From a virus (Duplodnaviria; Heunggongvirae; Uroviricota; Caudoviricetes), in IMG/VR virus record IMGVR_UViG_2695420430_000009, positions 1-4,181 of that record: a DNA stretch of 4,181 nt; one strand, 5' to 3'. Position numbers and translations under genes: made by a program. The notes under the pieces are model-generated. The model saw only the letters and a program-made list of their open reading frames with translations, was not told where the DNA came from and did no database searches. This document shows, piece by piece, positions 190-1,503 of this stretch (positions within the stretch are counted from its first letter, which is position 1; each line of letters opens with the position of its first letter).

Positions 190-1503
190 ATGGCAGTAAA
201 GATTTCAGGTGTGCTGAAAGACGGCACAGGAAAACCAATACAGAACTGCACCATTCAACTGAAAGCCAGACGTAACAGCACCACGGTGGTGGTGAACACG
301 GTGGCCTCTGAAAATCCGGATGAGGCAGGGCGTTACAGCATGGACGTCGAGTATGGTCAGTACAGCGTCACTCTGTTGGTGGAGGGATTCCCTCCATCAC
401 ATGCCGGGACCATCACCGTGTATGAAGATTCTCAACCGGGGACGCTGAATGATTTTCTCGGTGCCATGTCGGAGGATGACGTCCGGCCGGAGGCAATGCG
501 TCGTTTTGAACTGATGGTGGAAGAAGCGGCGCGTCACGCAGAGGAGGCGAAGAAGAATGCCGGAGAGGCGGAGACATCAGCGAGGAATGCCGGCATATCA
601 GCCAGTCAGGCAGAAGAGAACGCTGCAAATGCTGACACTTCAGCAGGGGATGCATCGGAGTCAGCCCGGCAGGCGGCAGAAAGTGCAGCCGCTGCAAAGC
701 AGTCAGAGGAGGCGTCCTCGTCCTCGGCCTCTGCGGCCGCTCAAAAAGCCAGTGAGTCATCACAAAGTGCAGCAGATGCTGAATTGTCAAGAAAGACGGC
801 AGAAAGTGCAGCCGGTAATGCAGCCAGGGATGCAACGACCGCAACAGAAAAAGCCCGGGAGTCAGCAGAAAGCGCACAGTCAGCGGAACAAAGCAGGATA
901 GCGGCGGAAGAGGCCGTAAACCGAATCCCCACCGTGGTGGGACCTCCCGGGCCAAAGGGGGAACAGGGGCCCGCGGGTCCTCAGGGGCCGAAGGGTGATA
1001 AGGGAGAGCGCGGTGACACCGGCCCTGTCGGGGCAACCGGCGAACGGGGACCGGCAGGTGATGCTGGTCCGGCAGGCCCGCAGGGGCCGAAAGGCGACAG
1101 GGGAGAGCGGGGAGAGACCGGGCTGACAGGAAGTACAGGTCCACAGGGGCCAAAGGGAGATACCGGGGCAACAGGCCCGGCAGGCCCACAGGGACCGAAA
1201 GGAGAAACAGGTGCGGCTGGCCCGGTGGGGGCAACCGGACCTCAGGGACCAAAGGGCGACCCGGGGGAGACACAAATCCGTTTTCGTCTGGGGCCGGGAA
1301 ACATTATTGAGACAAACAGCAATGGCTGGTTCCCGGATACAGATGGTGCGCTCATCACCGGACTGACCTTTCTTGACCCCAAAGATGCCACACAGGTTCA
1401 GGGGCTGTTTCAGCATTTGCAGGTCAGATTTGGTGACGGGCCGTGGCAGGATGTTAAGGGGCTGGATGAAGTGGGCAGTGATACAGGCAGAACAGGAGAA
1501 TGA
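190..1503 (+). CDS. Prophage side tail fibre protein (lambda Stf-like N-terminal domain, collagen-like repeats, short C-terminal domain)
   Basis: ORF-track ORF 184..1503; the likely true start is ATG 190, because the product then begins [16 protein letters not shown]... as lambda Stf does, and GGGGTG lies just upstream. N-terminal ~110 aa closely resemble lambda Stf; aa ~115-245 are Ala/Ser/Glu-rich low complexity (shaft-like); then 37 Gly-X-Y triplets and a ~75-aa C-terminal domain. Stop TGA at 1501-1503. Confidence 0.88.
940..1272 (+). repeat. Collagen-like Gly-X-Y repeat region inside the tail-fibre gene (37 uninterrupted triplets, recurrent GPQGPKG units)
   Basis: Translation [24 protein letters not shown]...[12 protein letters not shown] has Gly at every third residue; GPQGPKG recurs five times and is encoded by near-identical ~20-nt stretches. 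Confidence 0.85.

Follow-up and report, generated by a model that had tools for sequence, protein, structure and literature searches.

A probable EPclA-type collagen side tail fibre and a linked paralogue of its tip domain on an Escherichia coli prophage contig

We analysed a stretch of 4,181 bases of prophage DNA (IMG/VR record IMGVR_UViG_2695420430_000009), referred to here as the window, which is the entire draft contig CYCO01000074.1 of assembly GCA_001285505.1. Bases 190..1503 of the plus strand form an open reading frame (ORF) of 437 residues that very probably encodes an EPclA-type side tail fibre of a lambda-like (J-lom-stf) Escherichia coli prophage, working in the manner proposed below. 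The frame is open throughout, the product has both Pfam and tail fibre (phrog_366 and phrog_3279) matches, and its domains follow the EPclA order of PfN, PCoil, Col and PfC. The sequence features that mark membership in EPclA were found, namely a PF08400 PfN domain, a heptad PCoil, uninterrupted Gly-X-Y repeats and a C-terminal PF06820 domain. Directly behind the fibre gene lies an 89-residue ORF (plus strand, 1505..1774) whose product, paralogous to the fibre tip, is a free-standing protein with a PfC domain.

Architecture and proposed assembly of the fibre

The N-terminal anchor, PfN, covers residues 1-133 (190..588, plus strand) and matches PF08400 phage_tail_N over positions 1-133 of 134 (E 2.7e-69). 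Residues 1-93 also match PDB 9E7M, the collar domain of the Ur-lambda side fibre, with an E value of 2.3e-52. On the strength of these matches, we assign residues 1-93 to a predicted tail-tip-docking collar domain and the rest of PfN to a putative linker and the first part of the helical neck. The initial annotation had proposed that the N terminus closely resembles lambda Stf, and a real alignment bears this out: in a BLASTP comparison with lambda orf-401, which in the sequenced lambda strain represents the N-terminal part of Stf, 105/128 residues (82%) were identical (E 9e-79). The same comparison found nothing significant past residue 128 of the window fibre. At the DNA level, homology to lambda spans the 3' end of lom, the intergenic region and the fibre gene as far as about base 545 (codon ~119); it fades beyond that point, and this decay reads as a mosaic junction of the kind that fits modular exchange. 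Because the anchor module alone is common with lambda Stf, we do not regard the window fibre as an Stf orthologue.

Beyond the anchor, an Ala/Ser/Glu-rich heptad region recognised by its composition and periodicity forms PCoil (residues 134-250, 117 residues; 589..939, plus strand). Within residues 101-250, 46 of 150 positions are Ala, 23 are Glu and 23 are Ser; the autocorrelation reaches 0.33 at lags 7 and 14, and the dominant period is 3.49 residues. The helical periodicity begins near residue 101, before the PCoil boundary. The collagen triple-helix domain follows at residues 251-361 (111 residues; 940..1272, plus strand), with 37 uninterrupted Gly-X-Y triplets by direct count and a match to PF01391. 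Pro occupies 18 of its 37 X positions and 22% of its residues are charged. The distal tip (residues 362-437, 76 residues; 1273..1503, plus strand) is made up of PfC, an 11-residue tail and the stop codon, with PfC itself at residues 363-426 (1276-1467, plus strand) matching PF06820 Phage_fiber_C over all 64 positions (1-64 of 64, E 1.5e-34). The earlier description of a 437-residue fibre in which a collagen segment and a tip of about 75 residues take the place of the distal region of Stf was therefore accurate.

This architecture has been described before, which limits how the earlier proposal of a distinct distal module grafted onto a conserved domain can be read: the junction near base 545 agrees with modular exchange, but the combination is no new graft and was published as EPclA. 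Ghosh et al. reported in 2012 that EPclA has the order PfN-PCoil-Col-PfC, a length of 437 residues, a PCoil of about 116 residues and a collagen domain of 111 residues, and they listed it for seven to eight prophages in each of the O157:H7 strains EDL933 and Sakai (PMC3368898). Recombinant Sakai EPclA, expressed alone in a laboratory strain, folds as a soluble trimer with a collagen circular dichroism spectrum and a melting temperature of 42 C, its PCoil is a trimeric coiled coil, and rotary-shadowing electron microscopy shows a hinged dumbbell (PMC3368898). In the same work PfC proved to act as a trimerisation module and to nucleate the triple helix again once this had melted (PMC3368898). 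The Sakai protein ECs2717 shares with the window fibre its domain order, its length of 437 residues, its uninterrupted collagen domain of 111 residues and its position in lambda-like prophages. The O157:H7 EPclA copies are 96-97% identical in DNA to bases 1-1909 of the window, so that the two differ only as alleles and in nothing of kind. From these conserved lengths and domains, we infer that the window fibre would likewise form a trimer with a collagen triple helix and a trimeric coiled coil.

The exact protein sequence of the window fibre was found on a single contig, the window's own. Close relatives include the 437-residue fibres of the inducible phage Lambda_2B8 (LR595859.1) and of E. 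coli O39:NM, each 95% identical and free of gaps. Lambda_2B8 has the same order of J, lom, fibre and 89-residue ORF, and its small ORF is 98.9% identical to that of the window, but its downstream cargo differs, consisting of hypothetical genes, a tfa fragment and an EspM2 effector gene where the window has nleG and an IS1414-like element. The tip sequence is present in 697 of 5426 complete E. coli genomes, at 6159 places with a median of 10 copies per genome, and its ratio of nonsynonymous to synonymous polymorphism (pN/pS) is 0.17-0.31. The fibre architecture is thus extremely common as well as known since 2012, and the fibre adds nothing new to it.

Comparison with two other fibre types places the window fibre further. 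Lambda Stf (the 774-residue side fibre of Ur-lambda) has in common with it the N-terminal 128 residues, the collar domain, the upstream lom and the intergenic region. Lambda Stf has Pf2 repeats, a gp37-like distal shaft and an OmpC-binding tip, whereas the window fibre has a collagen helix and PfC instead, and Pfam found no Pf2 repeats (PF03406) in it. The EPclB fibres of short-tailed Shiga toxin (Stx) phages (Sp5 ORF67, 933W L0121 and phi24B gp61) share the PfC tip family and a collagen stalk, and their genes likewise precede an 89-residue PfC-only gene (Sp5 ORF68) whose product is 94% identical to that of the window. EPclB proteins are longer, at about 645 residues, have two collagen segments split by a Pf2 repeat and belong to podovirus tails; the window fibre is the shorter, siphovirus (lambda-like) version.

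Among the C-terminal domains of other collagens and fibres, PfC has analogues in function only. The T4 fibritin foldon, the C1q-like domain of BclA and the V domain of Scl2 are all small globular trimers that nucleate and register a triple helix, and an exhaustive profile search found no sequence relationship between PfC and any of them. That search, made with a PfC alignment profile against 1.84 billion representative proteins, returned 97 matches, nearly all of them fragments of the Escherichia-type family. Word-indexed homologue searches with both types of PfC recovered close relatives from Escherichia, E. albertii and Citrobacter rodentium alone. The profile also gave repeated weak, short matches to long multi-repeat proteins (P0237, P0241, P0245, P0246 and P0254). 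The four that were scanned (P0241, P0245, P0246 and P0254) carry SprB repeats, three of them with a Por secretion tail, and Ig-like or CarboxypepD_reg repeats also occur. We rejected these long proteins as PfC homologues; the matches are probably compositional and summed over repeats, arising from short Thr/Asp/Gly-rich beta-hairpin motifs.

How such a fibre would be built can be proposed from the lambda tail and from EPclA. In the Ur-lambda structure obtained by cryo-electron microscopy, Stf residues 1-94 form a six-stranded sheet and a helix, twelve Stf collar domains ring the gpV/gpM junction, and flexible linkers join three collar domains to each of four trimeric fibres (PMC12617516). The initial annotation's conserved attachment domain is supported by the collar-domain match, but its site in lambda is this tail-tip junction and not a baseplate. 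Given the 82% identity to lambda Stf, we would expect lambda-type docking for the window fibre. Three chains would make one fibre, and twelve copies of residues 1-93 would ring the junction between tail tube and tail tip to give four trimeric fibres. A flexible linker would lead into a trimeric Ala/Ser-rich alpha-helical coiled coil extending to residue 250, followed by a hinge and then by the 37-triplet collagen triple helix as the distal stalk. The 64-residue PfC would trimerise on its own and set the register for zippering of the collagen helix from C to N terminus, and it is the presumed host-surface binding knob. As the tip would nucleate folding in cis, a Tfa-type chaperone would not be needed. 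Presumably this particular copy is also assembled onto virions.

A collagen-like protein in a pathogen prophage could instead be mainly a bacterial factor, such as a collagen-mimic adhesin acting on an animal host in the way of streptococcal Scl or Legionella Lcl. In favour of this, the fibre gene has a type III effector gene for a neighbour, NCBIfam models report sub-threshold similarity to Scl1, Scl2 and Lcl via the collagen repeats, and the question was left open by Ghosh et al. (PMC3368898). The NCBIfam scores, however, lie far under their cut-offs (78 vs 325 bits) and arise from Gly-X-Y composition alone, and a direct reading of the fibre sequence found no signal peptide, LPXTG motif or other export signal. 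The N terminus is moreover a lambda tail collar domain, the gene sits within the late tail operon after J and lom, and the related EPclB has been seen at the tail end by immuno-electron microscopy and is essential for Sp5 infectivity (PMC5155283). An adhesin of this kind is extremely improbable in our judgement, and an EPclA-type side tail fibre is the reading that we prefer.

Some points nevertheless weigh against a working, host-binding side fibre. To our knowledge, no receptor has been described for PfC, and the authors of the phi24B study argue that a related tip does not bind BamA. AlphaFold2 models of the PfC domains reached a mean pLDDT (predicted local distance difference test) of only 47 for the 89-residue protein and 52 for the fibre tip, too low for a fold comparison, so that they furnish no structural argument. 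The low-confidence models do hint at mostly beta secondary structure, in agreement with published circular dichroism data. In the closest complete genome, E. coli O39:NM F8704-2, the fibre sits in a visibly decayed prophage with a truncated tape-measure gene and frameshifted tail genes. The window itself is a 4.2-kb draft contig from a family with about ten copies per genome, which short-read assembly may have collapsed or joined into a chimaera. Given this decay and the state of the contig, the window copy may not end up on any virion, and its sequence could represent a collapsed consensus.

The 89-residue gene behind the fibre

A small gene stands immediately 3' of the fibre gene in both lambda and the window; that of lambda encodes Tfa, and that of the window is unrelated to it. 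The earlier claim that no Tfa follows the fibre holds in this respect, but the partner slot is not empty, since it holds a paralogue of the tip domain. BLASTP comparison of the 89-residue ORF with lambda Tfa gave no alignment at E<=100, a profile-profile comparison of the two with hhalign gave a probability of 0.03%, and PF06820 was the sole Pfam match of the ORF at E<=1. On the basis of these three comparisons, we rejected the ORF as a Tfa or Caudo_TAP assembly protein. Neither of the outcomes that the initial annotation named as refuting it, weak N-terminal similarity to Stf or a Tfa homologue in this ORF, was thus obtained. The lack of a Tfa chaperone is understandable if the PfC tip nucleates folding in cis, and the recombinant orthologue folds alone. 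In phage Lambda_2B8, a 79-residue ORF annotated as a tail fibre assembly protein (8807-9046) lies about 2.5 kb 3' of the collagen fibre and its 89-residue ORF, and has the look of a remnant from an stf-tfa module that was displaced.

The protein encoded at 1505..1774 matches PF06820 with an E value of 4.6e-36 and phrog_576 over its full length (1-89 of 89, E 1.9e-60), and shares 37% identity with the tip of the fibre itself (E 3e-14). Its PfC domain spans residues 28-89 (bases 1586-1771) and is preceded by a family-specific N terminus of 27 residues, MNILKKLMQRLCGCG. The initial annotation did not recognise this paralogy, which was noted earlier for Sp5 ORF68 (PMC5155283). A PDB sequence search with the 89-residue protein found no meaningful match. 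Two features of the N-terminal region were considered and set aside: the LCGC motif is not read as that of a lipoprotein because there is no hydrophobic signal segment, and a metal site at C12/C14/H17/H22 is not supported, both His residues being replaced in the C. rodentium homologue.

The arrangement at the junction ties the two genes closely together. An AGGAG Shine-Dalgarno sequence of the small ORF lies within the last fibre codons (1494..1498, plus strand), 6 nt before the ATG at 1505, and a single nucleotide separates the fibre stop codon TGA (1501-1503) from this start codon. Of 58 loci, 54 have exactly the same junction, AGAACAGGAGAATGAC, and no promoter-like site was found between the fibre gene and the small ORF. 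An intrinsic terminator (~1789..1818, plus strand), consisting of a hairpin and a U-run (-21.2 kcal/mol, z = -5.6 vs shuffles), closes the unit. From this layout, the 89-residue ORF is predicted to be translationally coupled to the fibre gene in one terminator-bounded unit.

Linkage and conservation are equally strict across the family. The small ORF occurs in 698 complete E. coli genomes at 6394 places, as against 697 genomes and 6159 places for the fibre tip. It follows the tip in 76 of 80 loci selected by their tip sequence, and the other four aligned with indels and were not read. When loci on viral contigs were selected for their resemblance to the small ORF, 81 of 82 had it intact, with a pN/pS of 0.14; this value is biased downward by the way in which the loci were selected, and a repeat with the tip-chosen loci gave the same conclusion (76 of 76 gap-free loci intact out of the 80, pN/pS 0.18). 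In both locus sets together, 157 of 158 readable copies are intact. The constraint is concentrated in PfC, for which pN/pS is 0.085 in the tip-chosen loci and 0.07-0.085 across both sets, compared with 0.34 for the N-terminal 27 residues in the tip-chosen loci. Several loci keep the small ORF intact where the upstream fibre gene is frameshifted. The family is carried by 296 phage records, all at least 90% identical (90-99%), and homologues outside E. coli were found in E. albertii and Citrobacter rodentium only. The 89-residue ORF is a real gene under purifying selection.

Published data on homologues bear on what this gene might do. In Sp5, Mondal et al. (2016) described ORF68 as a non-essential late gene (PMC5155283). 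For phi24B, a supplementary table lists two peptides from purified virions, VITQVVILDADKK and ADGTWENIGGMK, with 3 spectra each (bioRxiv 10.64898/2026.04.10.717836), and both are identical in the window's 89-residue ORF, at residues 52-64 and 78-89 respectively. In that table the peptides map only to gp59_start or to hypothetical fibre-gp59 fusions, with the authors' flag 'Spike or just gp59?' (bioRxiv 10.64898/2026.04.10.717836).

On these grounds we suggest, tentatively and at somewhat less than even likelihood, that the 89-residue protein is a late-expressed, non-essential, virion-associated accessory of the fibre tip. A more specific proposal, which is possible but rather doubtful, is that it is a Tfa substitute of a different kind: a trimeric copy of the tip, made together with the fibre and carried by the virion on the distal knob, where it would form an additional or substitute cap for host binding, dispensable on laboratory hosts and selected in nature. 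Such a cap would perhaps attach via the 27-residue N terminus of the small protein or the 11-residue C-terminal tail of the fibre. There are observations that sit poorly with a role in the fibre. Deletion of ORF68 did not abolish the infectivity of Sp5 (PMC5155283) and recombinant EPclA folds without the product of the small ORF (PMC3368898), which makes an essential chaperone role unlikely. The phi24B virion peptides are also few, and the preprint's main text is silent on them (bioRxiv 10.64898/2026.04.10.717836).

The small ORF might alternatively be a displaced old tip that no longer works, or a silent recombination cassette that serves as a reservoir for swapping the fibre C terminus. Its paralogy to the tip and its place directly downstream would suit such a reservoir, as has been suggested for Sp5 ORF68 (PMC5155283), and rare chimaeric database proteins exist: P0062 has collagen joined directly to a PfC of the small-ORF type, and P0183 has the small-ORF N terminus joined to a fibre-type tip. 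Genuine recombination between prophage copies may account for these two proteins, or else faulty assembly. The tip and the small ORF, however, have no usable DNA homology (the best blastn segments were 42 nt at 74% and 20 nt at 85%), and only one cluster of collagen/small-ORF chimaeras was found among the 120 listed of 176 matches. Nor does a silent cassette sit well with conservation, since the pN/pS of the small-ORF PfC is as low as or below that of the fibre tip, the start codon, Shine-Dalgarno sequence and family-specific N terminus are all kept, and the ORF stays intact even where the fibre upstream is broken. Detection of small-ORF peptides in the virion preparations, as reported in the phi24B supplement, also counts against this reading, and we consider a silent or defunct tip improbable.

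Still less probable, and in our view quite unlikely, is programmed frameshifting (+1 or -2) by ribosomes close to the fibre stop codon, which would join the fibre to the small ORF, so that a fraction of fibres would carry tandem PfC domains. The small ORF does lie in the +1 frame relative to the fibre, with that frame open from base 1373, and an AGGAG resembling a Shine-Dalgarno sequence stands just before the UGA-C stop. An open overlap of this size carries little weight, as 44 stop-free codons in an overlapping frame are expected at ~12% by chance, and translational coupling ordinarily uses just such a layout, with a Shine-Dalgarno sequence and an ATG 1 nt past the stop. As we read the bases, GAA as the last sense codon does not allow re-pairing in the +1 frame, where AAU stands, and Mondal et al. 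found no frameshift-inducing sequence (PMC5155283). The phi24B authors included fusions in their search database, and the two peptides fit a fusion or a free protein alike; the portion of the phi24B supplement consulted here lists no peptide across the fibre-gp59 junction and no further small-ORF peptides. A free-standing accessory of the tip is therefore the reading of the 89-residue protein that we carry forward, at the tentative strength given above.

Neighbouring genes and genomic context

Upstream of the fibre gene, bases 3..125 (plus strand) hold the 3' end of an Ail/Lom-family outer-membrane protein gene, comprising its last 40 codons and stop, with a match to PF06316 Ail_Lom (E 3.5e-18, profile positions 160-199 of 199). 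This is the position of lom in lambda, directly 5' of the side fibre gene, and the homology extends to the DNA level. An intrinsic-terminator-like hairpin and T-run stand between lom and the fibre gene (152..183, plus strand), with an 8-pair stem (7 G-C) followed by TTTTTTGTGGG. The closest complete genome, F8704-2, is 97.5% identical over bases 39-2600 and 99.9% over 2519-4079. Its gene order matches, with tape measure, L, K, I, J and lom preceding the fibre, and the order of J, lom and fibre is common to this genome and phage Lambda_2B8.

Past the fibre-unit terminator lies a gene for an NleG-family type III secretion effector of 211 residues (1883..2518, plus strand; PF06416 T3SS_NleG, E 1e-36), and the corresponding gene of the closest complete genome carries the identical annotation. 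The G+C content of this region is about 0.40, compared with 0.57-0.70 in the fibre gene, and we regard nleG as cargo of the kind typically met where the tail operon ends, beyond the tail genes. The AT-rich spacer at 2520-2896 has a G+C content of 0.35-0.42, and translation of the window there is full of stop codons. At the equivalent of ~2753-2882, the annotation of the closest complete genome lists a minus-strand fragment, frameshifted, from a second NleG gene. The remainder of the window, 2897..4181 on the minus strand, is an IS1414-like (IS256-family) element whose frameshifted transposase falls into two ORFs (3779-4156 and 2931-3710), both with matches to PF00872 and NF033543. Matches to annotated IS1414 elements start near base 2897, and the contig probably stops at 4181 because the element reaches its end. 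Long antisense ORFs also run along the minus strand across the region coding for the coiled coil and collagen (413-1273, 286 residues; 880-1788, 302 residues). These were rejected as genes, being Pro/Leu/Arg-rich read-throughs of the GGN-CCN repeat composition.

Significance of the tip domain and its paralogue

With the fibre itself assigned to a known and abundant type, the remaining interest is modest and lies in the role of the PfC tip and its free paralogue rather than in the fibre. The 89-residue PfC-only gene is strictly linked to the fibre, strongly conserved and present at about ten copies per genome in Shiga-toxin-producing and related E. coli. PfC-type fibres are borne by the phages and prophages through which stx and type III effector genes pass from one strain to another. 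Knowledge of the ligands of the tip and its free paralogue would for this reason be relevant to the host range of such phages.

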